Below are positions 6,569-63,416 of a stretch of 64,000 nt of DNA, in pieces (positions within the stretch are counted from its first letter, which is position 1; each line of letters begins with the position of its first letter). The stretch lies in the NCBI RefSeq assembly GCF_036507355.1, contig NZ_AP027877.1; one strand, given 5' to 3'. The notes under the pieces were generated by a model. The model saw only the letters and a list, made by a program, of their open reading frames with translations. It did no database searches and was not told where the DNA came from. The position numbers were made by a program, and so were the translations under genes. The stretch comes from Escherichia coli. GTDB taxonomy: Bacteria; Pseudomonadota; Gammaproteobacteria; Enterobacterales; Enterobacteriaceae.

Positions 6569-7994
6569 TAATGCCAGTCAGTTAAGCAACTGACTGGCTC
6601 TTTTTCGGGGCTGTGGGGTATTTCCAGGGCCTCTCCTTTGCCACTCTCGGGAAGGCCCTTTCCCTTCTTGTCGGTAATTTCACAAGTTGTCCCATACTTG
6701 CAAGATCGCGCATCAGCTCCGGTATACGTCCCGGTGAAGCGCCCTGCAATGTCATCAGCATTCTCATCACCATTCCGCATGATTCTGAGAAGCTCAGTTG
6801 ATTTGGCCAGTAACCTTTCAGATGTTCCGCCATTTTAATCATCTGATATCTCACCAGATTATAAGCCAGTAAGACACCCCACAGCTCTTGCTCCACAAGC
6901 TCAGGCTTTTTACTTCTCAGCGTCAGCCTACTCAGTTGCATCGTCTGTTTTATCTCCCTGTATCCCAGTTCGATTTCCCAGCGATGACTGTACAGATCCG
7001 CCATTTCTCCTCCGGGGAAGCGCATGGCGTCCGTCATCGACGTCAGCAGATGGCAGACTTTTCCTTTGCGCGTCACGGTCAGCAGGCGGGCTGTCACCTC
7101 ATTTCCCAGTCCCGGCCACTTTTTTCGTGCCTGCGGGCTGGTTTTCAGCTTCACCAGATGATCGCCTTTACCCAGTTTTCTGATCTCTTCATATTGCGCT
7201 CCCTTTCTGAGAGGGATCATCCAGTGGCGGTGTTCTCCCGCCAGGCTCCAGGCATTTAACAATCCCAGTGAGTAATAACCTTTATCCATTAACGTCAGAG
7301 TGTTATCGCCGGTTTGTTCTATAAGTTGCTCAGCAAGCTCATTTTCGCTGTTCTTCATCGTGCCGAAGGCTGCAGCCGTCAGCAGATGGCTGGTCAGTTC
7401 CATCTGGCAGACCATTTTGACCTGCGGGTAGAGCGCCGGGGTCCCGGCATGTGTCTGGCGAGGGAAGGCTGCATCGTTCTCTGGTGTATCCGGTGTGCGC
7501 CAGAACACACCATCGATGGCCAGCAGGGTCAGGCCGCACCAGTGCGGATGCGGCGTGGCGTTATGCCAGAGCTGCGCTGTTTTCGTGAACACGCGGCGGA
7601 CAGCCTCACTTCCCAGGCGCTGGCGGGCCTGAATAACAGCACTGGGGGCAACGAAGGGGCGATTGCCCGGCAGCATGATGTCCAGGCGATTCACAATCTG
7701 GTGAAGAGGTTCTTTACGCTCAAGCGCCATGCCAACAATACACCAGACCATCATTTCGAGGGGAAGACGGCGCTTGCGTAGCGTTACAGTACCTGATTCG
7801 GCAAGGCAACGAGAGATGAGTTCGGGGTCGAGGTAATCCCCCAGAGAAGTCAGTGGGTTACGCAGAGAATCGTAACGGGATACCAGATCAAGAGCCTGTC
7901 CAATGTGCATAAAAAAATCCGGAAACGAGTGAGCGTTTCCGGATTCTTACACAGCCACTGGATCGGTCAACTGATCCTTAACTGATCGGCATTA
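6569..7994 (-). mobile_element. IS4 insertion sequence (1426 bp), apparently intact, flanked by 12-bp target-site duplication CCCCTTCTGGGG
   Basis: Terminal inverted repeats TAATGCC(A/G)(G/A)TCAGTTAAG at both ends; direct repeat ccccttctgggg at 6557-6568 and 7995-8006; encloses full 442-aa IS4-family transposase. Confidence 0.85.
6582..7910 (-). CDS. insG: IS4 transposase (InsG-like, DDE, IS4 family)
   Basis: 442-aa [53 protein letters not shown]... with YREIK motif region ([14 protein letters not shown]) typical of IS4-family transposases. Confidence 0.85.
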
Positions 7995-14787: not shown

Positions 14788-14872
<85 letters not shown>

Positions 14873-14906
14873 CCTCAAGCATTACCTCAAAATTTGAATT
14901 ACCCCT

Positions 14907-14991
<85 letters not shown>

Positions 14992-15350
14992 TCACTTTTC
15001 AAAAGTCCCTGAACTCTCAAACGAATCCGTAATTAAATATTCTGCCCAAGCGGGGAAGGATGAGAAGCTTCGACCAAGGTTCGACTTGAGCGCCAGCGAG
15101 AGAGCGTTGCCGCAGGCAACGACCCGAAGGGCGAAGCGCGCAGCGCTGAGTAATCCTTCCCCCACCACCATCATTTTCAAAAGTCCCTGAACTCTCAAGC
15201 GAATCCGCAATTAAATATTCTGCCCATGCGGGGAAGGATGAGAAGCTTCGACCAAGGTTCGACTCGAGCGCCAGCGAGAGAGCGTTGCCGCAGGCAACGA
15301 CCCGAAGGGCGAAGCGCGCAGCGCTGAGTAATCCTTCCCCCACCACCATC
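14992..15350 (+). repeat. rtT: rtT tandem repeats of the tyrT operon (two ~178-bp units, each ending with a tRNA 3'-end-like AATCCTTCCCCCACCACCATC)
   Basis: Two near-identical units; period 178 bp measured between the tRNA-3'-like motifs ending at 15172 and 15350. Confidence 0.85.
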
Positions 15351-31187: not shown

Positions 31188-31436
31188 CAGTTATATCTCC
31201 TCCGATGACGGAAATCGGGGGAGATAATATAAATTCCTGCTTATTGTATTTCTTCATACTACCTGGACAGGTCGTTAATCAGAATTGCGAGCCTGTACCA
31301 CAACCTGCACGAAACCACTGCAACAGCTGTTGAAAAGCCGGAATGTACTCTTCATTGCAAACATTTCAGGGATGAAGTGAAGATGAATTGAGACGTAGTA
31401 TCCACACCAAGCCGGCGTTATCCGGTGAGGCGCAAT

Positions 31437-31539
31437 GTTGCGGGGGCTTTATCCCTGGTGGCATTGGTTGCTGGAAAGAGAAAACCCCCGCACGTTGAGA
31501 GGTAAAACCTGACAACAGAACGGGGGCTAATCTTGAACC
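31437..31539 (-). ncRNA. rdl: Rdl antisense RNA (type I antitoxin), copy 1; coordinates approximate
   Basis: Minus-strand sequence ...GATTAGCCCCCGTTCTGTTGTCAGG...CGTGCGGGGGTTTTCTCTTTCCAGCAACCAATGCCACCAGGGATAAAGCCCCCGC matches remembered Rdl RNA, complementary to the ldr 5' leader. Ends not determined. Confidence 0.4.
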
Positions 31540-31592
31540 ATCAACAATTCAAGAATAGCCGCAAAATGTTGTCATTACAACAAGGCGGCTAT

Positions 31593-31700
31593 ATGACGCT
31601 CGCGCAGTTTGCCATGATTTTCTGGCACGACCTGGCAGCACCGATCCTGGCGGGAATTATTACCGCAGCGATTGTCGGCTGGTGGCGTAACCGGAAGTAA
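31593..31700 (+). CDS. ldr: Small toxic membrane peptide Ldr (35 aa), type I toxin, copy 1
   Basis: ATG 31593 to TAA 31700 encodes MTLAQFAMIFWHDLAAPILAGIITAAIVGWWRNRK; followed by hairpin terminator gggccgcagg...cctgcggccc plus T-run (31749-31781). Confidence 0.85.
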   Translation: MTLAQFAMIFWHDLAAPILAGIITAAIVGWWRNRK

Positions 31701-31841
31701 GGCGAAAACGGGCGTCAGGCTGCCGTGATGGCAATATGCGCCCGAAACGGGCCGCAGGGGTAACAGCCTGCGGCCCTTTTTGTCTTTATCTCTTCCACAA
31801 GTAAATATTGGCAACCCGAGCTGGAAGCATCATTCAGAGCA

Positions 31842-32043
31842 CTCATGAAACGACTGTAACAGCTGTTGAAAAACCGGAATGCACTCTTCATTGCAAACAT
31901 TTCAGGGATGAAGTGAAGATGAATTGAGTCGTAGTATCCACACCAAGCCGGCGTTATCCGGTGAGGCGCAATGTTGCGGGGGCTTTATCCCTGGTGGCAT
32001 TGGTTGCTGGAAAGAGAAAACCCCCGCACGTTGAGAGGTACAA
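31842..32043 (+). repeat. LDR unit 2, 5' half (ldr promoter/leader and rdl region), truncated by IS insertion
   Basis: Near-identical to 31297-31500 up to ...cacgttgagaggta, where the IS3-family left end begins. Confidence 0.8.
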
Positions 32044-32061
32044 TGAATCGCCACGGATAAT

Positions 32062-32874
32062 CTAGACACTTCCGAGCCGTTGATAATACTGGTTTTCATA
32101 TTCTGTCGGTGACATCTGATCGCTGGAACCATGCCGACGCTTACTGTTATAAAACATTTCGATGTAATCAAAAATATCGCTGCGGGCTTCTTCCCGCGTT
32201 CCGTAGATCTTTTTCTTTATCCGTTCGCGTTTCAACAACTGGAAAAAGCTTTCTGCAACCGCATTATCATGGCAGTTACCGCGACGGCTCATGCTGCCAT
32301 CCAGGCCGTGTGATTTCAGGAACGACTGCCACTCATGGCTTGTGTACTGACTGCCCTGATCCGAATGAACCAGCACCTGTTTTTGGGGATTACGGCGCCA
32401 TACAGCCATCAGCAGTGCGTTCAGGACAATGTCCTTTGTCATCCGGGATTGCATGGACCAGCCGATAATTTTGCGTGAGAACAGATCAACAACCACGGCA
32501 AGATACAGCCAGCCTTCGTGGGTCCTGATGTAGGTTATGTCCGTTACCCAACGCTTATCCGGAGCATCCGGATTGAACTGTCGCTGGAGCCTGTTGGGCG
32601 ACACGATACTGGCCTCGCCTTTACGTGCCCGCGGGCTCCGGTATCCGACCTGAGCCTTTATCCCGACACGTTTCATCAGTCGCCAGACTCTGTTCACTCC
32701 GCACTGTTGCCCGCTGTCCCGCAGATCCAGATGGATTTTGCGATAACCATAGACGCATCCCGATTCCAGCCAGAACTGTTTAATCTGCCCTGTCAGCCTC
32801 AGGTCTGCCTGATGGCGTTGTGAATGCGGCTGCTGAAGCCAGGCGTAAAAACCACTGGGATGAACATCCAGCAC
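32062..32874 (-). CDS. IS3-family transposase OrfB (DDE integrase domain), expressed by -1 frameshift from OrfA
   Basis: Contains WVTDITY...HSDQGSQYTS...GNCHDNAVAESFF DDE catalytic region typical of IS3-family OrfB. Confidence 0.8.
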   Translation of the reverse strand: MLDVHPSGFYAWLQQPHSQRHQADLRLTGQIKQFWLESGCVYGYRKIHLDLRDSGQQCGVNRVWRLMKRVGIKAQVGYRSPRARKGEASIVSPNRLQRQFNPDAPDKRWVTDITYIRTHEGWLYLAVVVDLFSRKIIGWSMQSRMTKDIVLNALLMAVWRRNPQKQVLVHSDQGSQYTSHEWQSFLKSHGLDGSMSRRGNCHDNAVAESFFQLLKRERIKKKIYGTREEARSDIFDYIEMFYNSKRRHGSSDQMSPTEYENQYYQRLGSV

Positions 32875-32930
32875 CCGACAGAGCAGGCGAACAGGCCAGC
32901 AACAGGTGTTGTCACGGATAAAGGCGTACC

Positions 32931-33215
32931 TCAGTCGGACAGCTTTGCGAAGTACGCCGCGGCTTTTTTTAATATGTCCCGTTCGTCGGTAACCCGCTTC
33001 AGCTCTTTCTGGAGACGGCGGATCTCGGCCTGAGCATCTGACTGTTCTTTATTAGCGGAAGAATCCGGACCGTACTTCTTTATCCAGGCGTAAAGGCTGT
33101 GGGTGGTGATATCGAGACGTGTTGCAACGCTGGCAACAGAATAACCGCGATCAACAACCTGTTTGACTGCTTCAATTTTAAACTCTTCGGGATAACGCTT
33201 ACCGCTCATGGGCAC
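32931..33215 (-). CDS. IS3-family transposase OrfA (HTH, leucine zipper)
   Basis: 94-aa ORF MPMSGKRYPEEFKIEAVKQVVDRGYSVASVATRLDITTHSLYAWIKKYG...RDILKKAAAYFAKLSD. Confidence 0.8.
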   Translation of the reverse strand: MPMSGKRYPEEFKIEAVKQVVDRGYSVASVATRLDITTHSLYAWIKKYGPDSSANKEQSDAQAEIRRLQKELKRVTDERDILKKAAAYFAKLSD

Positions 33216-46126: not shown

Positions 46127-47320
46127 ATGCTCACTGATACACAATGCCGCACTGCCAAACCGAAAGAAAAACTCTATCGACTCAATGATTTCAACGGTCT
46201 CTACCTCGAAGTGAAACCCAATGGTAAAAAGGCTTGGCGTTATCGGTTTAAGCTCAACGGTAAATCCAGCATGTTTGCGCTAGGTGAGTACCCGACGGTC
46301 AAGCTTGCCGAGGCTCGAGAAAAATGCGAGCAAGCGCGAAAGCAGGTTGCGGAAGGAGTCAACCCAGCGCAAGCTCGTCAGTTAGATAAGATTCGTAAGG
46401 TTAACGACGCATCCAACACCTTTGAGCTGATCGCCAAAGAGTGGCTGCAGATGAAAGACTGGGCCGAAATTACCAAAACACGCCGACTGGATATGCTTGA
46501 ACGTGTGGTTTTCCCCTCAATCGGTAAGCTTCCAGTCAGAGAGATCACCCCACACCATATCCTTAAAATTCTTCAGGAAACTGCCAAACGAGGAGCACCG
46601 ACAGTTGCCGCAGAAGCCCGTCGCACCATTTCATCAGTTTTCGAGTTGGCTGTGGCAACGCTTAGAGCTGATAGCGATCCTGTCTGGCCTGTACGCAAGG
46701 CACTTCCGGCGAATAAGACACAGCACAAACAGGCATTGAATCCACAGCAAATCGGGAAGCTATTAAGCTGTTTTGATAACAGTCGCGGCTCATATCAGGT
46801 TAACTATTGCATGTGGCTAATGTGGTGGACGCTGGCGCGACCAGCCGAAGTCACCGAGGCAGAGTGGGCAGAGTTCGATCTTGGTAACGCACTGTGGACC
46901 ATTCCGGCAAGGCGTATGAAAGCTCGTAGGGAACATGTTATTCCCCTTCCTTCCCAAGCCGTCAACATGCTCAAAACACTACAAGGATTAACCGGGCATA
47001 GGCAGCATCTTTTTCCGGGCAGGGATAATCCGCTAGGCCCAATGACATCGCACTCTCTGCGTCAACTACTTAAAAGCCTCGGATGGAATGGCACTTATAG
47101 CCCCCATGCTACCAGAACTACAGGAAGTACGCGTTTAAACGAAATGGGCTATCGACCTGATGCTATTGAGGCCCAACTTGCGCACGCTGATACCAACAAT
47201 GTTCGTCGCACATACAACCATGCAACTTATCTTGATGAGCGAAAGGTTATGATGCAAGACTGGGCAGATAAACTTGAAGGATGGGTAGGAAGCACACACA
47301 GCAATATTGATGTTTCGTAA
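46127..47320 (+). CDS. int: P4-type tyrosine integrase (island integrase)
   Basis: 397-aa ORF with the N-terminal arm-binding-like region typical of P4-family integrases and a C-terminal catalytic region ...HSLRQLLKSLGWNGTYSPHATRTTGSTRLNEMGYRPDAIEAQLAHADTNNVRRTYNHATY (R..H..R..Y). Confidence 0.85.
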   Translation: MLTDTQCRTAKPKEKLYRLNDFNGLYLEVKPNGKKAWRYRFKLNGKSSMFALGEYPTVKLAEAREKCEQARKQVAEGVNPAQARQLDKIRKVNDASNTFELIAKEWLQMKDWAEITKTRRLDMLERVVFPSIGKLPVREITPHHILKILQETAKRGAPTVAAEARRTISSVFELAVATLRADSDPVWPVRKALPANKTQHKQALNPQQIGKLLSCFDNSRGSYQVNYCMWLMWWTLARPAEVTEAEWAEFDLGNALWTIPARRMKARREHVIPLPSQAVNMLKTLQGLTGHRQHLFPGRDNPLGPMTSHSLRQLLKSLGWNGTYSPHATRTTGSTRLNEMGYRPDAIEAQLAHADTNNVRRTYNHATYLDERKVMMQDWADKLEGWVGSTHSNIDVS

Positions 47321-50290: not shown

Positions 50291-50450
50291 AGGGTCAATA
50301 TAAAGGCATTACTAGCATCGGGATGTACTAATCAACGGAGAGCAAGATCACATCCCTAACAGTATGACCAGATAAGCTATTCATAGTAAAAAAATATATC
50401 CACTAACCATCTAGAAGATAAGTCATGATTTTCACGGTAATGACTCCAAC

Positions 50451-50954
50451 TTATTGATAGTGTTTTATGTTCAGATAATGCCCGATGACTTTGTCATGCA
50501 GCTCCACCGATTTTGAGAACGACAGCGACTTCCGTCCCAGCCGTGCCAGGTGCTGCCTCAGATTCAGGTTATGCCGCTCAATTCGCTGCGTATATCGCTT
50601 GCTGATTACGTGCAGCTTTCCCTTCAGGCGGGATTCATACAGCGGCCAGCCATCCGTCATCCATATCACCACGTCAAAGGGTGACAGCAGGCTCATAAGA
50701 CGCCCCAGCGTCGCCATAGTGCGTTCACCGAATACGTGCGCAACAACCGTCTTCCGGAGCCTGTCATACGCGTAAAACAGCCAGCGCTGGCGCGATTTAG
50801 CCCCGACGTATCCCCACTGTTCGTCCATTTCCGCGCAGACGATGACGTCACTGCCCGGCTGTATGCGCGAGGTTACCGACTGCGGCCTGAGTTTTTTAAA
50901 TGGCGGAAAATCGTGTTGAGGCCAACGCCAATAATGCGTGCACTGGCGCGACAT
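50451..50954 (-). CDS. insB: IS1 transposase InsB (produced as InsAB fusion by frameshift)
   Basis: 167-aa [53 protein letters not shown]... Confidence 0.9.
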
Positions 50955-51148
50955 CCGACGCCATTCATGGCCATATCAATGATTTTCTGGTGCGTACCGG
51001 GTTGAGAAGCGGTGTAAGTGAACTGCAGTTGCCATGTTTTACGGCAGTGAGAGCAGAGATAGCGCTGATGTCCGGCAGTGCTTTTGCCGTTACGCACCAC
51101 CCCGTCAGTAGCTGAACAGGTGGGACAGCTGATAGAAACAGAAGCCAC
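50873..51148 (-). CDS. insA: IS1 protein InsA
   Basis: 91-aa [46 protein letters not shown]... Confidence 0.9.
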
Positions 51149-51504
51149 TGGAGCACCTCAAAAACACCATCATACACTAAATCAGTAAGTTGGCAGCATC
51201 ACCTAAGTCTTGAGCCATTATTTCTATAAAATACATGTTAAATCATATTAGAATAGTTTATACGATAATTCGCTTGAAGAAGAAAAACACTATTCTAATT
51301 CAAACATTTTATATTATCAAGAACCATGGTAATTACAGTTAATTTACAGTATCAGTGATGTGGTTTCCAAAAAAGTATGCCCAAACATTTAAATATATGC
51401 CTTCGATAAATGAACTTTAACTCATCAGAATGACTACCCATCAATACTATTGAGTATATGAAGACAATTCACAGTCCCATCTGGCGAATTTTTCAGATGG
51501 CGAG

Positions 51505-54500
51505 TTAAATATCTTCTGGTGATTCCCCCAGATACATCTTACGGTAATGATACACTTCAAAGAATTTCCCCTTGTCTTTGTAACTACTGATAAAGTAGCA
51601 ATGTGTTAAATACTTTAGCAGGATCTCATTACCTTCAGTTTTGTGAACTTTTGCTCGTTTGGTTTTATCCGCAATCAAATTATATTCTTCCGACACGAAG
51701 GCCATAAGCGCACGATTGATGTATTCAAAAGGCAGTTCTTCACACTCTAAAAGATGATTCAAAAACACAAGTCGAGTGTCATCTTCCGAAACATTAAGAA
51801 GGAGTGCTATACTGACTTTACTATTTAGGCTTATATGGTCGAAGAAACTATTGGTATAGTGCGGCCAGAGAACATTGATGATTGAAACTTTAGTCGTCAA
51901 CTCTATATCGTCATCATTGAGCACAAGCTCAATAAGTTCATTATCGAAATCTTCGTCATCTTGCAGATAAAACTCAATATTATTTTCAAAAACAGCAAGG
52001 TTGTTTCTAATCATAAGCGACAGACACTCATTGAGGCCCTTGCGACGTTGTCCCTCATAAATGCTGAGTACGTCTTCATAGAGCGCTTCTGACAGCAAAA
52101 CTCTGTTGCTCTCACAAAGTGCTTTAAATTTTGTCAGTGGCAGGTCACTGATTACCTTGTCGATACTTACAGGCAGCACGCTGATCAACTGTGCATATAA
52201 CGCGTCTGGCTTATCCGCTGCTGAAATGATGTGATTCACAACATTATCAATAGACTCCTCAGGAACACTGACCTTATGGCCTGAAAGCACCTCTGGATGG
52301 TGAGCAAAAAACGCCCACAATATCTCATCGTCGACATCGGTATACATGTAGTTAAATATGTTATCCCAGTTGGCAGCGACACGCCCATGTTTAAACAAGA
52401 GGTCATAAACAGTGAATGACGCACCCTCAACTACCGATAGCCTGATATTTTCAACTGTCGACAACTGCTGAACTTCAAAATCCATGTTTTCAATTATAAT
52501 TTCTTTGGAACGCTCAGTAGCGTCTGAATTAATTAGTGAAATAACGGATCCAACGCTTTCCTCAGAATGAATGAAATATTCCACAATAAACATCTCAAGG
52601 TTTGTATTTACAGCCTCAATTAAGCATGGGACTTTTTCACTCATAATTAAGGTATATGGATTGCGCGATAGTTCCTCAACATTCTTTCTGTTATTAGAGT
52701 ACGCATTAAACAGTGCAGTGAGGTTATTAATATTAAATACATACAGAAAATTCTCTGCGATAAACTTCACCAACGTACGTTCACTTTCATCGTTAGCTTC
52801 ATTGACGCTATCGAATACAATATTGAGCTCTTTTAATTTTATGCTGAATGACGCAATCTCATCGGGTCGTATGTATGTAAACAACGTAGTGTCTGTTTTT
52901 AATTCATGCAGATAATCCTGAACAGCACTTTGTCGGGTAATGTTTTCTATCAGACCAAAACGAAGTAATGACACAAATAACTGCTGATAAAAATCATCAT
53001 CAGAGTCAATGTCACGGTAAGTACTCATCGCCGCCATCAATTTACCCAATGTCTTTTCATCGCTTAAAATTAAATTAATTAAGTCATGATAGTCATCATT
53101 ACTAAATTCATAAAAATACGTCCGCATAGTGCGAATGATTAAGCCATGTGAGCAATAATTAAATAAATGAATAAAAACATCACGGGCAAAACCAGCTCGG
53201 CAGTTGATCAAAAAGCTAATTATATGCGGATGAAAAATCCCCTCGTAATATTTAAATGATAGCGACTCCATTTTATCTACAACATTGGAAACGTTATTCA
53301 GATGAATATCTTTTAACTCCTCAAAATTCACCTTAGCAGCGACCTTCTGGATATAAACATTATCTGATTTACTTAATGCACCTGCATGGAAGATAGAGCG
53401 ATATTGCATGTAATCCTGCTCAATATATCCATTTGACAACATGAAAAACAACAATTCCATATTGAAATTAATCGCTGAAGGCTTGGATGCATTTTTATTT
53501 CCCTTATCGTCAGTTGATGCAACATTAAGCAACCACTCACTCAATTTCGCTAAGGTTATTTTTTCACATAATTCATGAAGTGATAGGCCATTTCGTTGAT
53601 TAAGAACACGCTGTGTGTTTAAAATATTTTTAGATAATTGCTCAACGGTTTTTTGGTTCTTATCTAAAATAACTGGTGAGCGTTTGTTATATTCACGTAA
53701 ACTCTCAGCTCGCTTATTATGTGGAATTTGGAAGGTATCTTGATATTCATACCCGTTTCTTGAATATGTGATAGCTATTCCGGATGGAAGCTCTCTGTTC
53801 AGAAAATCACAAAACAATGATTCATCCCCACAAAGTTCAACAAAGCTCCAGCTACTCCCAACTTGCCCATACTTATTATGGCTTATATAAAACACTGTAT
53901 TCGATTCAATTTGTTCAGGAAGATAACGCCTTAGAATTTCAACCCTCAGATTTAAACTGGATGTTTGCAATTCCTTTTGTACTTTCACCAACTTTTCTTT
54001 CTGCTGAGAAATCTTTATTTCCAAATCTTTAAAATACACGTCATGTAGCGTTCTCTTAGAGTAAGCATTAACTATTCTGTATAAAAAACCATCCTGATTA
54101 TCAAGCAGAGTGAAATCTTTGGTACATAAATTTTTATACATTATCAAAGAAAATAACTTCACATCAGAAATCTCACCCGTAATTAATTTTTTAAAAATAT
54201 TAAATTCATTTATAACATTATTCATCACCCGCATATCAGTCAGGTAAAGGGATACTTTCTTGAAAAACTGCTCTTTATCTACCGAATTAAAGTTTATAAC
54301 TTTACTACTTAATATGTCATACGCATTCTCACTATCTACTGCAGGTATAATCGGCACAATAAAATCAAAAAATTTTGTTTGTGATTCAGCATCCTTTAAT
54401 AAATCCTCCCTGACTGCAAAAATAAATTTAATCGGTTTCTTTTCCAATAGTCTGGAATTGTTTATCACTTGATTTATTTCACGGAGCTTAATAAAAATAT

Positions 54501-55407
54501 GACCATTGTTTAAACGGTCTAAATCTTCAAATACGACAACTCTATACTTTGTTTTAAGGAAGAAGTAAACAATCTCATCAATATACAAATTTAGCAGAGA
54601 AGCTGTATTCTGTTTTTCCGCCGCAATTTCTGCCTTTAAGAGATTTACTTTATCAAGAGCAATTTTTCTGTCAAAAAATCCTATCCGATAAAAACGAGAC
54701 AGCAGATACCAACAAATGATAAATGATAGCGAACCGATACATCCCCAACGCCATACCGGATGTATCGCAATGAAATGACTCACCGCTGACGGTAATGAAA
54801 ACGTGTTGATAATTTTTTGAGGAAACAACAATGTAGTGACAACGATTGTCAGTATGAGAACAAAAAACAGCAAACAGGATGTTATTAGTATTTGCCCAAC
54901 ACTTCGGGTGTGAATGCGCTCTACCCGCGAATCTGGCAGCGTACCTTTATCCACTTTGTATAAAATCTGCTGTAATATGCTGTATTCAATGCTTTGTTCT
55001 TTTGATAAAGACTCGGAACTTTTTAGTGTCTCATCCGTTTCAAAGTTTGCCAGTGAGATAATCACGTGCTCATCCGCTGGTTTTAAACTTGTAAACCTGA
55101 GCCAATATTTCAGGCGGTGCCACAACCGCTTTCGCCCTTCAATTTTTTTAAGGTATGAGAGAATAACCGAGCTTTTACCCGCGCCATAGGACCCCGTGAT
55201 GGCGATGTTCTTCACATCATCCCGGCTGAGGGCATAATCCAACGCCTTAAAATAGGGTTGATATCCCTCTTTATCAGGATCGACAATCGGTGTTAGCGTT
55301 TGGAATTCCCTTTCCGTTCCTGAATTGTTTTCTGAAGTAACCTGAAGCCTTGCGACTGTTTTATGCAACCAGTCTGCGATCGTTTTCAACCCGAAAGACA
55401 GCGCCAT
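51505..55407 (-). CDS. Large (1300 aa) KAP/YobI-like P-loop NTPase with transmembrane hairpin inserted between Walker A and Walker B; long C-terminal region of unknown function. Candidate defence/conflict protein
   Basis: Walker A ITGSYGAGKSSV (about aa 70-81), two hydrophobic helices (about aa 171-195 ILITSCLLFFVLILTIVVTTLLF and 215-236 HPVWRWGCIGSLSFIICWYLL), Walker B-like VVVFEDLDR (about aa 290-298); Lys/Asn/Ile/Phe-rich composition; gene is conspicuously AT-rich versus flanks. Confidence 0.75.
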   Translation of the reverse strand: MALSFGLKTIADWLHKTVARLQVTSENNSGTEREFQTLTPIVDPDKEGYQPYFKALDYALSRDDVKNIAITGSYGAGKSSVILSYLKKIEGRKRLWHRLKYWLRFTSLKPADEHVIISLANFETDETLKSSESLSKEQSIEYSILQQILYKVDKGTLPDSRVERIHTRSVGQILITSCLLFFVLILTIVVTTLLFPQKIINTFSLPSAVSHFIAIHPVWRWGCIGSLSFIICWYLLSRFYRIGFFDRKIALDKVNLLKAEIAAEKQNTASLLNLYIDEIVYFFLKTKYRVVVFEDLDRLNNGHIFIKLREINQVINNSRLLEKKPIKFIFAVREDLLKDAESQTKFFDFIVPIIPAVDSENAYDILSSKVINFNSVDKEQFFKKVSLYLTDMRVMNNVINEFNIFKKLITGEISDVKLFSLIMYKNLCTKDFTLLDNQDGFLYRIVNAYSKRTLHDVYFKDLEIKISQQKEKLVKVQKELQTSSLNLRVEILRRYLPEQIESNTVFYISHNKYGQVGSSWSFVELCGDESLFCDFLNRELPSGIAITYSRNGYEYQDTFQIPHNKRAESLREYNKRSPVILDKNQKTVEQLSKNILNTQRVLNQRNGLSLHELCEKITLAKLSEWLLNVASTDDKGNKNASKPSAINFNMELLFFMLSNGYIEQDYMQYRSIFHAGALSKSDNVYIQKVAAKVNFEELKDIHLNNVSNVVDKMESLSFKYYEGIFHPHIISFLINCRAGFARDVFIHLFNYCSHGLIIRTMRTYFYEFSNDDYHDLINLILSDEKTLGKLMAAMSTYRDIDSDDDFYQQLFVSLLRFGLIENITRQSAVQDYLHELKTDTTLFTYIRPDEIASFSIKLKELNIVFDSVNEANDESERTLVKFIAENFLYVFNINNLTALFNAYSNNRKNVEELSRNPYTLIMSEKVPCLIEAVNTNLEMFIVEYFIHSEESVGSVISLINSDATERSKEIIIENMDFEVQQLSTVENIRLSVVEGASFTVYDLLFKHGRVAANWDNIFNYMYTDVDDEILWAFFAHHPEVLSGHKVSVPEESIDNVVNHIISAADKPDALYAQLISVLPVSIDKVISDLPLTKFKALCESNRVLLSEALYEDVLSIYEGQRRKGLNECLSLMIRNNLAVFENNIEFYLQDDEDFDNELIELVLNDDDIELTTKVSIINVLWPHYTNSFFDHISLNSKVSIALLLNVSEDDTRLVFLNHLLECEELPFEYINRALMAFVSEEYNLIADKTKRAKVHKTEGNEILLKYLTHCYFISSYKDKGKFFEVYHYRKMYLGESPEDI

Positions 55408-55668
55408 TGAGTGTCCTCACAATCACGAATATTAAATTCATAAATTGGAGACAATCCTAACATGAATCAAAAGAATCATCACACAATCATGTAGTTAAAA
55501 GAACAAGCTGGAACCTGATTTTTTATAGCATTTTCACGCAGCACAGTTTTTGCCCACGATAGTATCACCGGATTACGCTCACTCAAGATCAAGCTTATCG
55601 TACACCCGCACTACATATCAGCTACACCCATCACCGTAACCGAGTCCCATCGATATTCACTGACTAGT

Positions 55669-55765: not shown

Positions 55766-56638
55766 CTACTTACGGGTTCTCACCCCAGAGGTAAATGTCA
55801 GTCCAGTAAACCCCATCTCATCCTGCTTACATAACGCCCGTGCCAACAGAACAGGCGGCAGCCTGTGTTTGGGGGTACGGCGTTTTCCTGCCTCATCAGG
55901 ATAAGGTCTTACTTCCAGCCACATCCCCTTGAAGCAGTATGTTACCTGCTCGTCAAAATCCTTCAGCTTCTGGCTTTTCATCGGCCGACTGATTATCCCC
56001 GCTCTGGCCCGCATATTTTTATCCCTCTTCATCGCCTTTCTTAGCGTTTTGAGCGCCCCCGGCTCTCTCGGCATCAGTAGATGCAGGTGAGGCATCCAGC
56101 GCTGGATATCGGTGTGAAAATCCAACTCGTAGTCACCCACTATTTTGCCCGTAAATCCGGCTCTTTTTATCATCTTGTAGACCCGCTCCCGGAACTTCTT
56201 ATGATCCCAGCGGCTGATCTCGTCTTCTTTCAGCATGGCATCGTAATAAACCAGCGTAACCACTCTGTACGCGCCCTTAGAGGCCCTCAGTGGGAGCAAT
56301 TCAGTCAGCTTACGTAACCTGTGCAGGCGGAAACACTGTGGGCAGGCCGCGCTACCACATTGATGTTCTGGCATACAGCCCTCCAGTTTTCTCTTTAACC
56401 GAAACATCCGCCCTCGCCACTTTTTGTGTGCTTTTCTGACTTCTTTGCTCTCATCCTGATTATCATTCCTGTTCTGCCGCACAGCCTTTCGTATTGCTTT
56501 TATGCGGTACAGGCGTTCCTTCTCCATTTGCTCCCGGGTTTCAAAACCCGGAATGGTAAGAGCTAACTTTTCCAGTTGGCGCTCTTCTTCTGTCAGTGAT
56601 GCATACACTGCTCGCGCAATACGGTTTGTACCAAACAT
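55766..56638 (-). CDS. Putative HUH-type replication initiation protein (inovirus Gp2-like), island-encoded
   Basis: Contains HLHLL (His-hydrophobic-His) motif in WMPHLHLLMPREP and a Cys cluster CGSAACPQC; start placed at Met 56638 directly after the alpA stop (track ORF overlaps alpA by 50 bp). Confidence 0.45.
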   Translation of the reverse strand: MFGTNRIARAVYASLTEEERQLEKLALTIPGFETREQMEKERLYRIKAIRKAVRQNRNDNQDESKEVRKAHKKWRGRMFRLKRKLEGCMPEHQCGSAACPQCFRLHRLRKLTELLPLRASKGAYRVVTLVYYDAMLKEDEISRWDHKKFRERVYKMIKRAGFTGKIVGDYELDFHTDIQRWMPHLHLLMPREPGALKTLRKAMKRDKNMRARAGIISRPMKSQKLKDFDEQVTYCFKGMWLEVRPYPDEAGKRRTPKHRLPPVLLARALCKQDEMGFTGLTFTSGVRTRK

Positions 56639-56639
56639 A

Positions 56640-56834
56640 TCAGCAACCTCCTCTGGTCCCACGGGAAGCAATCCACTCATTGACTTCACTTTCCAGCCAG
56701 GCCACCGCTCGTCCTCCTGTCAGGGATTTTTGGCGTGGGAAAGTCCCTTTTTCAATCATCCGGTACAGTGTGGCGCGGCTCACCGCACAGCGTTCCAGCA
56801 CAGCCTGAATTTTGACCAGTTTCATATCATTCAT
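56640..56834 (-). CDS. alpA: AlpA-family phage/island transcriptional regulator (MerR-like HTH)
   Basis: 64-aa ORF MNDMKLVKIQAVLERCAVSRATLYRMIEKGTFPRQKSLTGGRAVAWLESEVNEWIASR, the AlpA signature. Confidence 0.8.
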   Translation of the reverse strand: MNDMKLVKIQAVLERCAVSRATLYRMIEKGTFPRQKSLTGGRAVAWLESEVNEWIASRGTRGGC

Positions 56835-56941: not shown

Positions 56942-57547
56942 TTGTCGGGCCGACACTTTATGTCCATTGTCGGTCCGACAAAAGAGTCGTTAGAATGCTC
57001 AAAAATGAATGCATCAACGGGAGTTCGCGTGACAGGAAAAAGGCAGACCAGCCGCCAGAAACGGTCAGATAAAATGAGGAAAAATGCAGGATTGACTCAA
57101 GTGAAGGTTTACCTGGATGAAACCACTCTGCAGTTACTGGGGTTACTTCAGGAAAATATGTCAGAAGGTGATATGAAGGGTGATGAGGTCAATATGTTCC
57201 GTAGCATGGCTATAACGGCCAGTATCCACACCCTGGCAAAAGAACGACTGGGGGAACAAGAAGTATCGCATATGGTGATCAAGAACCTCGGTGCTGACTG
57301 CCCATCCGACGAAGCGACAGAAAACCCACGTAAGTTTCTTCTCCGGACGATGATTAACCACCTGTATGATAATGGCACACACAATCCGCACCGCCGTCGA
57401 TTGTCAGAAGTGGCTGGAATTATGAATGAAAGCAGTTTCAGGAACCCGAAGAACAAAAAAGGGGGATGGAGTGAAAATGATATCAGTCACTATGTCAGCA
57501 ATGACATAAAACTGGAAAATGATACCTCGGTTGATGTACCGGGCTAA
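56942..57547 (+). CDS. Hypothetical protein divergent from alpA; possible ribbon-helix-helix regulator (start uncertain)
   Basis: Internal segment MRKNAGLTQVKVYLDETTLQLLGLL resembles an RHH beta-strand/helix; real start may be one of the internal Met codons (about 57005 or 57074). Confidence 0.35.
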   Translation: MSGRHFMSIVGPTKESLECSKMNASTGVRVTGKRQTSRQKRSDKMRKNAGLTQVKVYLDETTLQLLGLLQENMSEGDMKGDEVNMFRSMAITASIHTLAKERLGEQEVSHMVIKNLGADCPSDEATENPRKFLLRTMINHLYDNGTHNPHRRRLSEVAGIMNESSFRNPKNKKGGWSENDISHYVSNDIKLENDTSVDVPG

Positions 57548-57760: not shown

Positions 57761-58708
57761 TTACCAGCAACATAGCGCCCTGGAGGCTCTGTCTACAGCC
57801 TGCCTGCCCCTACAGTCATAGCGTGTGGTCGTGGATATATCCGCATGTCCTGCCAACTGGCGCACCACATTAATGTCCACTCCCTGCTCCAGCAGGCGGG
57901 TGATGAATGTCCGTCGCAGGTCGTGGGGGGTGAAGTAATCCACTTCTGCAGCTTCGCGTAACTGCGCCAACAGCCCTGTAAGACCCGTGGTGGTAAGCCG
58001 TTGTCGTCCTGGCTGCCCCGCACGACTGATGCGACTGAACAGCGGCCCGGCATGATACCCCCGGAGCTTCAGCCATCGCCGCAGTTGCATGCAGACTTTT
58101 CCGGAAAGGTGGATTTCCCGGATTTTGCGCCCCTTTCCCTGCCTGACAATCACGATCCCCGTGGCTACATCTATATCTCCCACGTCCAGGGCTACCAGTT
58201 CGGCGGCACGCAGACCTGCGCCACACAGAAGCAGCAAAATAGCCCGATTACGCTGGCAACGTACAGCGTCAGCCTTTCCGGCCGCCGCCAGCATGGCCCG
58301 AATTTCGGTCCTGTCCAACGCCCTGCCCAAGCGGGTGGCACTGCCAGTGACACGCCTGACTGAACGTATGCGCGTCAGTCTGTCAGCATCCAGAATCCCC
58401 ATACTGAAAGCCGCTCCGGCAACCGATTTCAGCGCCGACAGCGCCATGTTCACCGTGGCAACAGCATAGCCCTCATCCAGCAGCACCGAGCGTACCCGCA
58501 TCACGCTCGTGTAGTCCAACGTATGCCAGGGGTAGGTGTCGGGCTTCGCCCCCGGACGGAGGATACCGGCACATCGTCGGAGTAAGCTTTGCATCCCCCT
58601 GCGCCCGGCTGGCGTCAGGCTTGCCAGCCACAGCAATGCTGGGTTGATGGAGAGGGCATTTTGCGGGTGGACAGATGCCGCGCGTTTACCATTGCGGCTC
58701 GTGGTCAT
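57761..58708 (-). CDS. Tyrosine-type site-specific recombinase (XerC/XerD-like), GC-rich
   Basis: 315-aa ORF with catalytic region ...FTPHDLRRTFITRLLEQGVDINVVRQLAGHADISTTTRYD (R..H..R..Y) and LCGAGLRAAELVALDVGDID box; visibly GC-richer than neighbouring island genes. Confidence 0.7.
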   Translation of the reverse strand: MTTSRNGKRAASVHPQNALSINPALLWLASLTPAGRRGMQSLLRRCAGILRPGAKPDTYPWHTLDYTSVMRVRSVLLDEGYAVATVNMALSALKSVAGAAFSMGILDADRLTRIRSVRRVTGSATRLGRALDRTEIRAMLAAAGKADAVRCQRNRAILLLLCGAGLRAAELVALDVGDIDVATGIVIVRQGKGRKIREIHLSGKVCMQLRRWLKLRGYHAGPLFSRISRAGQPGRQRLTTTGLTGLLAQLREAAEVDYFTPHDLRRTFITRLLEQGVDINVVRQLAGHADISTTTRYDCRGRQAVDRASRALCCW

Positions 58709-58784: not shown

Positions 58785-59405
58785 TCAGCGTTTTTTCACA
58801 CCATAATGCTGAAGGTAGCGATTCAGGCTCCGACCAGCGCCAGTCTCAAAATTCCATGTCCGCCAGATAAGCTGCCCCACTGTGTCGCGTATCACCAACC
58901 GGAAGTGGGTATGCAGGTCATCCTCAATGGCGACATTTTTATACGTCGCAACCACAGCCTCTGCTTCCAAACGAGTAAACGAATCTGGGGGCAGTTGTGG
59001 CGTCTGTATTGTGGGCTCTGGTGCTGCGCGGTCAGGACGTGAATGCCGTCCCTGTGTGATGTGACTGACGGCTTGGTAACTGCTCTGCCTCAGAAGTCCG
59101 GTGGTCTTCCTTGCCCGGAGAATATCAATGGAGGTAATGTGCGGAGACTGGGGGATAAAGCTGACATTACCCTGGTCTGTACGTACCAGGTCGTACTTTT
59201 CAACAATAGAATTCAGGGCCTCCGTCAGTGATATCTCTGCATCAATGTATGCCTGAATGGCACCTTTCCCGCTAAACGGCGTGTCGCTGAGAGTGAGTCC
59301 GTAGTGCTTCTCCAGCAAGTAAGCCAGCAGAGTGTGCCAGACATCAGCAGGGGACAGGCAACACGATAGTGTCCGATTTGGTGAGACCGGTTGTTTTTTC
59401 ATCAC
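58785..59405 (-). CDS. CbtA/YeeV-family type IV toxin homolog with about 80-aa C-terminal extension
   Basis: First ~125 aa align by eye to CbtA (..[35 protein letters not shown]..); ORF continues to 206 aa. Confidence 0.65.
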
Positions 59406-59511
59406 TGTATTCTCGCGGATAACATTGAAAAAGACGCGCGAACGTGAACATCAATTGAACGTCCGCACTTATTGGAATCCGTCGGCCAGACGGGCAAAAA
59501 GTGACTTCCAT

Positions 59512-59895
59512 CTACTGTCCCGAAGACCGGGAAGCCATGGGATAAATGGCGATATATACGTAGCCACAGGAGCCGAGCGTGTTAGCCTCGCAGATCAGCC
59601 CTTCTACCTGTAGCGTGATCCCCTTCGCCCTGCGCGGGTCCAGTTCACCGGACAGCAGAATGCTTTCCATCTGCCTCATGAGCAGCGGAAATATCTGGTC
59701 CAGATGGCGTGCGTCTCTGTCGCTGAACGTACCGGTGAATTCAGCCCGGTCAGCCAGAAAATGCAGGCAGCCGCCCTCCTGCACCAGACGCGCCCCGAAG
59801 CATGGCGTCACGTTGCACTGTAGCCCCCACAGATCTGTGGGTGGCGTATCGTAGTCTTTCAGATCTGTCATGTCAGGTGTCCTCAAAAGTCGCAC
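59512..59895 (-). CDS. CbeA/YeeU-family antitoxin homolog
   Basis: 127-aa ORF with ..LWGLQCNVTPCFGARLVQEGGCLHFLADRA..HLDQIFPLLMRQ..SGELDPRR.. matching the CbeA family pattern; immediately upstream of the toxin. Confidence 0.7.
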   Translation of the reverse strand: MRLLRTPDMTDLKDYDTPPTDLWGLQCNVTPCFGARLVQEGGCLHFLADRAEFTGTFSDRDARHLDQIFPLLMRQMESILLSGELDPRRAKGITLQVEGLICEANTLGSCGYVYIAIYPMASRSSGQ

Positions 59896-62077: not shown

Positions 62078-63272
<1,195 letters not shown>

Positions 63273-63416
63273 CTAAATGAGCGCAAATAACCACAAAAGG
63301 AACTTGATAACTTCCCTTTGTTTGCTTTTAATATCTCCGGTACTAACAACCCGGAGTGAATACATTGAGTAACTCAACAGATTCGCAAAAAAAAGCGAAG
63401 TAAGGGAAGTGCTGTT

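Follow-up and report, generated by a model that had tools for sequence, protein, structure and literature searches.

The gene at positions 51505-55407 of a 64,000-nucleotide stretch of Escherichia coli DNA (contig NZ_AP027877.1; the whole stretch is hereafter called the window) is an intact copy of tmn, the gene for Tmn, a named single-gene antiphage defence system that is already known. The encoded protein is very probably a YobI-family P-loop NTPase that acts as a stand-alone antiphage system and is carried as cargo of an integrative defence island adjacent to ychF. A preprint of 2026 characterises Tmn as a sensor-effector that forms decamers in the membrane; its gene is a self-contained defence gene, and the C-terminal region serves as the sensor (PMC13001434). 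In the variant Tmn-25, binding of a phage protein to the arms leads to ATP turnover and Mg2+ export, and the resulting plasmolysis halts the phage; this mechanism is known from one preprint, whose map has a resolution of 11.6 angstrom (PMC13001434). The Tmn label of the window gene can be obtained from standard defence finders, and both the antiphage role and the mechanistic model of the family are published. What the window gene offers is a natural variant that joins a conserved engine to very different sensor arms, which could help to map how the arms set the choice of trigger and to predict which phages are resisted by E. coli lineages with the ychF island.

The tmn gene and its upstream region

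The coding sequence and its ribosome-binding site are located as follows:

51505-55407, minus strand: tmn coding sequence (1300 aa plus stop), single-gene Tmn/YobI-family defence protein, WP_097409326.1, from the ORF list, PADLOC and RefSeq names
55414-55418, minus strand: Shine-Dalgarno sequence GAGGA, with 6 nt between its end and the tmn ATG, from sequence reading

The gene forms a single unbroken ORF with an ATG start. Its GC content of 36.6% (GC3 37%), set against 50.4-50.6% in the remainder of the window, bears out its initial description as AT-rich. Xenogeneic DNA that H-NS silences typically has a lower GC content than its host, and the 37% GC of tmn in E. coli suggests that H-NS may silence it here. 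A promoter scan of the 358-bp spacer upstream of tmn found no convincing sigma-70 consensus; the promoter and terminator scan returned a site count not above that of shuffled sequence, with nothing convincing 5' of tmn, and an Rfam search of the whole window returned no element associated with the gene.

These observations raise the possibility that tmn is silent or decaying cargo in the window, with an intact sequence but, in this strain, either without expression or with its protective effect lost. The gap between the 37% GC of tmn and the 50% GC of its host, the upstream spacer in which no consensus promoter is seen and the erosion of the surrounding island by IS1, IS5 and IS21 remnants, with loss of DarTG and RADAR, all speak for such a state, but the 3.9-kb ORF is uninterrupted, the catalytic and structural residues are all retained, the Shine-Dalgarno sequence is good, and the gene is strongly conserved among its carriers, as detailed below. 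We therefore consider silent or decaying cargo unlikely, and continue with the reading of tmn as a stand-alone antiphage system.

Family assignment

The PADLOC Tmn model (PDLC02220) matches the window protein over its full length (E = 4e-222, 738.5 bits; protein residues 13-1275 against profile positions 7-1250 of 1273). The first-pass annotation, made from the letters alone, had proposed a single-gene antiphage candidate but had held that no named defence system could be assigned; the proposal is supported by the full-length PADLOC match and by the self-contained nature of Tmn (PMC13001434), while the reservation is overturned by the PADLOC profile, which assigns Tmn. The HMM search that it had called for thus returned full-length matches to Tmn and to the YobI-ATPase family, together with a weak one to KAP_NTPase. 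RefSeq/PGAP names copies at 99.8-100% identity "YobI family P-loop NTPase"; an NCBIfam search with the window protein gave no match, and the PGAP name must therefore stem from a different rule.

The initial label of the protein as KAP/YobI-like survives in its second half. The YobI assignment stands (Pfam E = 2.5e-96), whereas the Pfam KAP_NTPase model (PF07693) gives a weak, partial match (21.8 bits, E = 1.3e-4, model positions 2-198 of 293), outscored by the YobI model by about 300 bits, which at the sequence level fits a distant relationship rather than KAP membership. Tmn was labelled a KAP NTPase in earlier work (PMC11846954; bioRxiv 10.1101/2022.08.21.504612), but the two families are now treated as separate, and PifA, the KAP protein invoked in the first-pass annotation, has no transmembrane helices (PMC13001434).

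NTPase core and membrane hairpin

The N-terminal part of the protein contains the following features:

54079-55254, minus strand: YobI-ATPase domain (residues 52-443), Pfam PF20693, model positions 1-363 of 363
55171-55194, minus strand: Walker A motif GSYGAGKS (residues 72-79; G77/K78 correspond to Tmn-25 G66/K67), from motif reading and residue mapping
54826-54900, minus strand: predicted transmembrane helix 1 (residues ~170-194), from hydropathy and AF2
54682-54759, minus strand: predicted transmembrane helix 2 (residues ~217-242), from hydropathy and AF2
54514-54540, minus strand: Walker B strand with its motif VVVFEDLDR (residues 290-298; the Tmn-25 equivalents of D295/R298 are D276/R279), from motif reading and AF2

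The order of these elements (Walker A, two hydrophobic helices and the Walker B-like motif) is that put forward in the first-pass annotation, which had described a membrane-inserted P-loop NTPase with a transmembrane hairpin between its Walker motifs. Kyte-Doolittle analysis with a 19-residue window finds two hydrophobic segments between the motifs, with peaks of 2.88 at residues 173-191 and 1.37 at 218-236. In the AF2 model of the N-terminal part, which is of moderate confidence (pLDDT 68.8), helices 170-194 and 217-242 lie between a beta-strand at 114-118 and the Walker B strand at 290-294, so that both predicted transmembrane helices sit inside the modelled P-loop core. Basic residues are clustered on both outer flanks of the hairpin, with only one in its 22-residue loop, a charge pattern that agrees with a cytoplasmic location for both Walker motifs.

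The YobI core of the window protein is about 40% identical to the NTPase regions of other enterobacterial Tmn proteins. A sequence search of the PDB found no relative of the protein, and a Foldseek search of the PDB with the N-terminal model gave only weak AAA+, ORC and RdrA matches (E >= 1.8e-3, TM <= 0.29), which are uninformative beyond indicating a P-loop ATPase fold for the model.

The plasmid-encoded Tmn WP_001683567.1 ("anti-phage transmembrane ATPase") agrees with Tmn-25 in numbering and residues, and BLASTP aligns 1263 residues of the window protein to it at 30% identity (E = 7e-147). All the Tmn-25 residues needed for defence (G66/K67, Y262, D276/R279, N297, K325/F326, R374, F506 and Y541/R544) are conserved in the window protein, and their equivalents (G77/K78, Y281, D295/R298, N316, K345/F346, R393, F532 and Y573/R576) are invariant or nearly so in 121 homologues. 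The G66A/K67A substitution abolishes defence by Tmn-25 (PMC13001434), and phage protection that depends on Walker A is known from other Tmn variants (PMC13001434; PMC11846954; bioRxiv 10.1101/2022.08.21.504612).

C-terminal arms

The remainder of the protein forms two arms:

53488-54087, minus strand: proximal arm (residues ~441-640), coiled-coil helices with a four-strand alpha/beta insert (~504-561), holding the invariant F532 and Y573/R576, from AF2 and residue mapping
51550-53481, minus strand: distal arm (residues ~643-1286), an alpha-solenoid built of about 45 short helices, with a small C-terminal alpha/beta cap, from AF2

Structure prediction of the C-terminal part, proposed at the outset as a check, yielded the arm architecture of Tmn: the AF2 model of residues 441-1300 (pLDDT 87.5) runs from a coiled coil through an alpha/beta insert to an alpha-solenoid, as in the published arms. 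Foldseek returned 270 matches to this model at E <= 1e-3, and in AFDB50 it aligned Tmn/YobI-family proteins over some 870-900 columns with TM up to 0.77 and about 20% identity. Of the two roles conjectured for the roughly 1000 C-terminal residues, sensor or effector, that of a sensor accords with the one assigned to this region of Tmn in the literature (PMC13001434), and the distal arm is presumed to be the sensor that binds the trigger. Between the arms and their counterparts in other Tmn groups, Tmn-25 included, sequence identity is only about 21%, and a different trigger and a different set of phages are therefore to be expected for the window protein.

Proposed mode of action

With the NTPase core split by a two-helix membrane hairpin, the ATPase would be held on the cytoplasmic face of the inner membrane. 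By analogy with Tmn-25, which is a decamer, the window protein may assemble into a ring whose cytosolic arms would bind an early phage protein, a role played for Tmn-25 by RIIB of T2. Binding of the trigger would then, as proposed for that protein, increase both the turnover of ATP and the export of Mg2+; with the plasmolysis that shrinks the cytoplasm, phage development would stall, and spread to sister cells would be blocked.

Island context

Three features frame the gene in the window:

50436-51203, strand not assigned: IS1 copy directly downstream of tmn (context, not part of the system), from annotation, blastn and reading of the IS1 terminal repeat
55766-56834, minus strand: 290-aa protein (55766-56638) and AlpA-family regulator (56640-56834), upstream of tmn (context, not conserved partners), from PHROG and neighbour comparison
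46127-47320, plus strand: arm-type (P4-like) tyrosine integrase adjoining ychF, marking the island boundary, from annotation and PHROG (integrase E = 5e-71)

The P4-type integrase that the first-pass annotation had placed at the edge of the island is thus found next to ychF. Its account of the immediate surroundings, an IS1 on one side and an AlpA/rep module on the other, is accurate for the IS1 and for AlpA, which matches excisionase and regulator families in PHROG, but not confirmed for "rep": the 290-aa neighbour of AlpA drew no match in Pfam, PHROG or PADLOC. Other copies of the ychF-adjacent defence island also carry RADAR and DarTG, both of which are intact in the carriers Z226-1 and FDAARGOS_1251. 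In the window the island is heavily eroded, with IS1, IS5 and IS21 remnants and with its DarTG and RADAR neighbours gone; blastn of the window against two such copies (L004 and L003) places the IS1 where they have a 3.9-kb DarG-DarT-exonuclease module downstream of tmn. Taken together, the island copies provide a record of IS1 eroding a RADAR-Tmn-DarTG defence island.

AlpA, the 290-aa ORF and tmn follow one another on a single strand, and the trio is kept together in all E. coli and Salmonella copies of the island, which could indicate that tmn works within a multi-gene unit, with its two upstream neighbours as, for instance, sensor or antitoxin partners. These copies, however, are nearly identical and represent one island, so that co-occurrence within them is uninformative, and neither gene is found beside the homologues in Pectobacterium (83% identity), Providencia (66%) and Raoultella (49%). 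A 358-bp gap, moreover, separates the 290-aa ORF from tmn, an IS2 lies between the two in pIndS104-CTX, and no conserved operon was found for Tmn (PMC13001434). With one neighbour devoid of matches and neither conserved beside homologues, both the partner role and the "rep" module were rejected, and a multi-gene unit appears very improbable. The neighbours of homologues vary by genus across Pectobacterium, Raoultella, Providencia and E. coli (integrases, RADAR, DarTG, nSTAND3-Mrr, M78/DUF4411 and a KAP NTPase), from which we infer that the window tmn acts alone.

The same setting bears on the target of the system. The first-pass annotation had left room for a conflict system, the gene lies on mobile islands beside toxin-antitoxin modules (CbtA/YeeU, DarTG), and function is untested for most clades of the YobI family; the window protein might accordingly be a YobI-family membrane NTPase directed mainly against non-phage targets, through plasmid or ICE conflict or through stabilisation of the island by addiction. 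Against this, all five of the Tmn variants tested, drawn from three clades, protected against phages (PMC13001434), the window protein has its full-length architecture and essential residues in common with Tmn, and the neighbours are recognised antiphage systems. A mainly non-phage role is hence highly doubtful, and antiphage defence by Tmn acting alone remains the favoured interpretation.

Distribution and lineage

The window type of tmn is rare, occurring in 24 of the 5426 complete E. coli genomes, from diverse hosts and at 99.8% identity or more, with one copy disrupted by IS5 and one variant annotated as split; this near-uniformity is the conservation that argues against decay. The names ECOR25, ECOR70 and b1359 do not appear among the 23-24 carrier genomes. 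At larger scale the YobI family comprises about 3,900 clusters (50% identity, E <= 1e-3), two of which make up the subgroup of the window protein. Among 1.84 billion representatives at 50% identity its sole close relative is P0018, at 51% identity, and within 5.8 billion 90% clusters its lineage amounts to 18 clusters at 49% identity or more (P0001-P0018, its own included).

Average-linkage clustering of 90 family members keeps the window group separate at 30% identity and above and joins it first to the Tmn-25-like plasmid group, at about 27%, which fits a sister-clade relationship between the two at the level of sequence. The window lineage is small and set well apart within Tmn, and it is about as likely as not that its strongly diverged arms sense a phage trigger unrelated to RIIB, conferring a phage range other than that of the tested Tmn variants. 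The chromosome-enriched enterobacterial clade of Tmn has been designated Ia (Wu et al., 2026; doi 10.64898/2026.03.01.708804); if the window lineage falls outside it, it would constitute a specificity class not yet characterised within a known system.

Comparison with known systems

The closest point of reference is Tmn-25 of E. coli ECOR25, which shares with the window protein, in the same order, the N-terminal segment, Walker A, the two-helix transmembrane hairpin, the Walker B/YobI core and both arms, and which is likewise encoded by a single gene without fixed partners. The two differ in sequence (27-30% identity as a whole, with about 40% for the NTPase but about 21% for the arms), in length (1300 aa for the window protein against 1273) and in location, the window tmn being chromosomal, in the ychF island, whereas the Tmn-25 type is encoded on a conjugative plasmid, within its leading region. 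At L867 of Tmn-25, a residue linked to specificity, the window protein has Y903.

[quoted passage not shown] Its likeness to the KAP NTPases, F-plasmid PifA among them, is that of membrane-associated or defence-linked P-loop NTPases with helical repeat regions. The antiviral Avs/STAND NTPases follow the same logic as Tmn, a large single polypeptide in which an NTPase switch is coupled to a sensor of helical repeats, to which a phage protein binds (PMC13001434), but they belong to another NTPase class, and Tmn differs from them in being embedded in the membrane and lacking a separate effector domain. The outputs diverge accordingly, with ion export and plasmolysis for Tmn and nuclease or protease activity for Avs/STAND.

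RESULTS

Gene and NTPase Core

The gene encoding the window protein is preceded by a GAGGA ribosome-binding site, read in the sequence, that stops 6 nt upstream of its ATG. The gene and the two motifs that define the NTPase core of its product are as follows.

Window 51505-55407, minus strand: tmn ORF, uninterrupted, 1300 codons, ATG start
Window protein residues 72-79: Walker A, GSYGAGKS, with K78
Window protein residues 290-298: Walker B-like, VVVFEDLDR

Both motifs lie where the first-pass annotation had placed them, and the gene is AT-rich, as it had described, with 36.6% GC (GC3 37%) vs. 50.4-50.6% in the remaining window. A promoter scan upstream of the gene found no recognizable tmn promoter, and H-NS silencing of this 37% GC gene is possible. 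Between the Walker motifs are two hydrophobic segments, with Kyte-Doolittle 19-residue means of 2.88 (173-191) and 1.37 (218-236), joined by a loop of 22 residues with a single lysine. Basic residues cluster directly ahead of the first segment and directly past the second, a charge pattern that fits a hairpin with Walker A and Walker B both cytoplasmic. In an AlphaFold2 model of residues 1-470 (121 homologues, pLDDT 68.8), helices 170-194 and 217-242 follow core strand 114-118 and precede the Walker B strand 290-294; the predicted transmembrane hairpin is therefore an insertion within the P-loop domain, which confirms the hairpin that the annotation had described between the two motifs. Against the PDB, this model returned weak AAA+/ORC/RdrA similarities only, which are uninformative, and a sequence search of the PDB detected no solved structure of any relative.

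Family Assignment and Arm Architecture

A single model of the PADLOC library matched the window protein, Tmn (PDLC02220, E = 4e-222), over residues 13-1275 and profile positions 7-1250 of 1273. The name Tmn stands for transmembrane NTPase and denotes an anti-phage system made up of one gene. This full-length match supports the proposed reading of a single-gene antiphage system and places the gene in a named system, which the annotation could not do from sequence alone; routine tools recognize tmn immediately. The suggested KAP/YobI-like family is likewise borne out, with Pfam YobI-ATPase (PF20693) matching residues 52-443 (E = 2.5e-96) and KAP_NTPase giving a weak, partial match (E = 1.3e-4). 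An NCBIfam profile search yielded zero matches, and RefSeq names identical copies "YobI family P-loop NTPase" or "P-loop NTPase fold protein."

The C-terminal AlphaFold2 model (residues 441-1300) is confident (pLDDT 87.5) and presents, in order, long helices with a four-strand alpha/beta insert (about 504-561), some 45 short helices (about 643-1246) and a small alpha/beta cap. It reproduces the arm architecture published for Tmn, in which the proximal arm comprises a coiled coil and a variable alpha/beta domain and the distal arm is an ARM/HEAT-like alpha-solenoid (PMC13001434). A Foldseek search of AFDB50 returned 270 matches at E <= 1e-3. The best of these, 1200-1280 aa in length and drawn from Enterobacterales, Bacteroidota, Clostridia and others, are all YobI-like, "Pcar" or "DNA-binding protein" entries and align over ~870-900 columns with TM up to 0.77 and only ~20% identity. 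The ~1000 C-terminal residues that had been left uninterpreted, as a plausible sensor or effector, are therefore predicted to be the Tmn arms.

Position in the Family and Distribution

In a set of 5.8 billion clustered proteins, P0001, the cluster that holds the window protein, is followed by 17 others at no less than 49% identity, from Pectobacterium, Providencia, Salmonella, Enterobacter, Raoultella and Citrobacter, below which the score falls abruptly from 1296 to 511 bits, with identity at or below 32%. When 1.84 billion representatives at 50% identity were searched exhaustively with HMMER, the family came to ~3,900 members at E <= 1e-3 (1,978 at E <= 1e-30), with only cluster P0018 close to the query (51%). 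Tmn has been reported in 5,915 of 223,572 genomes and divided into ten clades (Ia-IX), of which Ia (chromosome-enriched) and Ib (plasmid-enriched) are both confined to Enterobacteriaceae, with a median length of ~1270 aa (PMC13001434). When 90 full-length members were clustered by average linkage, the window group remained separate at 30% identity and above and first joined the Tmn-25-like plasmid group at ~27%, by which it may be the chromosomal sister clade Ia.

The gene is rare in E. coli, being found in 24 of 5426 complete genomes, at 99.8% identity or more and chromosomal every time, with one copy broken by IS5. That tmn is silent or decaying cargo is unlikely, given the intact ORF and its near-identity in these 24 genomes.

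The ychF Island

The first-pass annotation had pointed to the ychF locus, and its comparison reveals an island with integrases, inserted between ychF and ycgV, that carries RADAR and DarTG in other copies. E. coli ET881 is 99.87% identical to window 37504-64000; its island spans ~30 kb, with an arm-type integrase at each end, and has IS1X2 and unrelated hypothetical genes at the RADAR position. Four other copies (FDAARGOS_1251, Z226-1, CH468 and record pIndS104-CTX) share one gene order: RADAR (rdrA/rdrB), RadC, DUF2787, YeeU with a CbtA pseudogene, DUF905 and a 315-aa integrase; then a divergent 195-aa ORF, AlpA, a 290-aa ORF, tmn, DarG and DarT; and lastly a 3'-5' exonuclease/helicase, IS remnants, a P4-like integrase and ychF. 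The RADAR position falls past the window end, and the presence of RADAR in the islands of FDAARGOS_1251, Z226-1 and CH468 (L004 1-3229, L012 1-228, L013 1-229) makes the ancestral island a RADAR-Tmn-DarTG defense island. Directly downstream of tmn, the window carries IS1 (50436-51203) in place of the 3.9-kb DarG-DarT-exonuclease block (L004 16204-20115, L012, L013), which looks like loss of the DarTG defense/TA module by IS1-mediated deletion, and IS5 is inserted at 62079-63273. The genes upstream of tmn are listed below.

55766-56638, minus strand: 290-aa ORF, no detectable homology
56640-56834, minus strand: AlpA
56960-57547, plus strand: 195-aa ORF, divergent
57761-58708, minus strand: 315-aa tyrosine integrase, second and short

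This set has an int-regulator-alpA-unknown layout and resembles a small nested integrative element carrying tmn. Searches of Pfam, PHROG and PADLOC gave zero matches for the 290-aa protein. Farther along (59040-59871, minus strand), a C-terminally truncated CbtA-family toxin pseudogene adjoins an intact YeeU-family antitoxin, accompanied by RadC/JAB, DUF2787 and DUF905 genes, a typical CP4-like island module with the toxin here inactivated.

The pIndS104-CTX copy (L003, CP101356.1) is on a non-mobilizable Salmonella enterica "plasmid" of 322,681 bp that holds ychF, the P4-like integrase and the entire tmn island, with 99.9% protein identity to the E. coli copy; finding the core housekeeping gene ychF there points to misassembly, to a piece of chromosome or to a captured E. 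coli chromosomal segment.

A Pectobacterium homologue (83% identity) also adjoins ychF, so the site downstream of ychF appears to be an insertion hotspot across genera; ychF is among the integration sites listed in a pipolin paper. In Pectobacterium sp. CHL-2024, the 1.8 kb from ychF to the homologue (L006 11954-13732) contain no called genes, and no integrase is called nearby. The Providencia homologue (66%) resides in a CP4-like island beside an nSTAND3-Mrr protein, and the Raoultella homologue (49%) in an island that has a P4 integrase, M78/DUF4411 and a KAP NTPase of 710 aa. In the two Raoultella loci (L007/L008 12022-18321), this KAP_NTPase protein and a 1343-aa protein without a Pfam match, which appears as 634 + 629 aa in the second genome, are possibly further defense genes. 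AlpA and the 290-aa ORF lie beside tmn in the window and in the four copies, and tmn could form a multi-gene unit with them, a poorly supported and very improbable arrangement: neither is co-inherited with tmn in the distant Pectobacterium, Providencia and Raoultella homologues, and the neighbors vary. The gene is thus self-contained cargo of a defense island, as published for Tmn, which has no conserved operon (PMC13001434).

Other Features of the Window

The tyrT region (14788-15348, plus strand) contains two tRNA-Tyr genes and two RtT repeats, and ET881 (L005 14832-15922) is annotated with five RtT units; RtT copy number therefore varies by strain. The Ldr/Rdl type I toxin-antitoxin repeats (31308-32958; rdlD 31479-31544) also differ in number from ET881, and are followed by a 918-bp IS3-family fragment (32041-32958) matching the IS3 remnant in other strains' island. 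A 442-aa ORF (6582-7910, minus strand) lies within an adhE-tdk segment (about 6587-7976) unaligned to ET881, which at the matching position carries a frameshifted IS4-family transposase; the window segment is therefore probably an intact IS element.

DISCUSSION

Tmn, cloned from E. coli ECOR25, acts synergistically with Gabija, Septu I and PrrC (Wu et al., bioRxiv 10.1101/2022.08.21.504612). It has been classed among the KAP-family NTPases, with two transmembrane domains noted as unusual and with restriction of several phages, in a study that also identified an anti-Tmn protein of phage and a mutation in nmad5 that allows escape (Yamashita et al., 2025; PMC11846954), and was later moved to the YobI family (Wu et al., 2026 preprint; PMC13001434). 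The mechanistic model comes from this one preprint, in which five cloned variants each protected against differing phage sets, the decameric, umbrella-shaped membrane complex was resolved at 11.6 angstroms, phage T2 RIIB was reported as a direct trigger, and the output was a rise in ATP turnover together with selective export of Mg2+ and a reversible plasmolysis that proceeded without depolarization (PMC13001434). [quoted passage not shown] A target other than phage is poorly supported and would be most surprising.

The plasmid protein WP_001683567.1 ("anti-phage transmembrane ATPase," 1273 aa) carries the residues quoted for Tmn-25, the characterized ECOR25 protein, at the same numbering (L33, G66/K67, K183, F506, Y541/R544, L867). 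The window protein shares with it 30% identity over 1263 aligned residues (E = 7e-147) and keeps all positions at which mutation costs Tmn-25 its defense (G77/K78, Y281, D295/R298, N316, K345/F346, R393, F532, Y573/R576), which are invariant or near-invariant across 121-sequence alignments. Sequence and models together portray a YobI NTPase anchored in the membrane, its catalytic and structural residues intact and its arms of the Tmn type. The phage-specificity position L867 of Tmn-25 is Y903 in the window protein, and the arms are only ~21% identical to those of other enterobacterial Tmn, vs. ~40% for the NTPase half. From this divergence, we infer that the trigger and phage range probably differ from those of Tmn-25. 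The window gene belongs to a defense family that already has a name and has been both validated by experiment and studied for its mechanism, within which it represents a divergent, apparently uncharacterized lineage.
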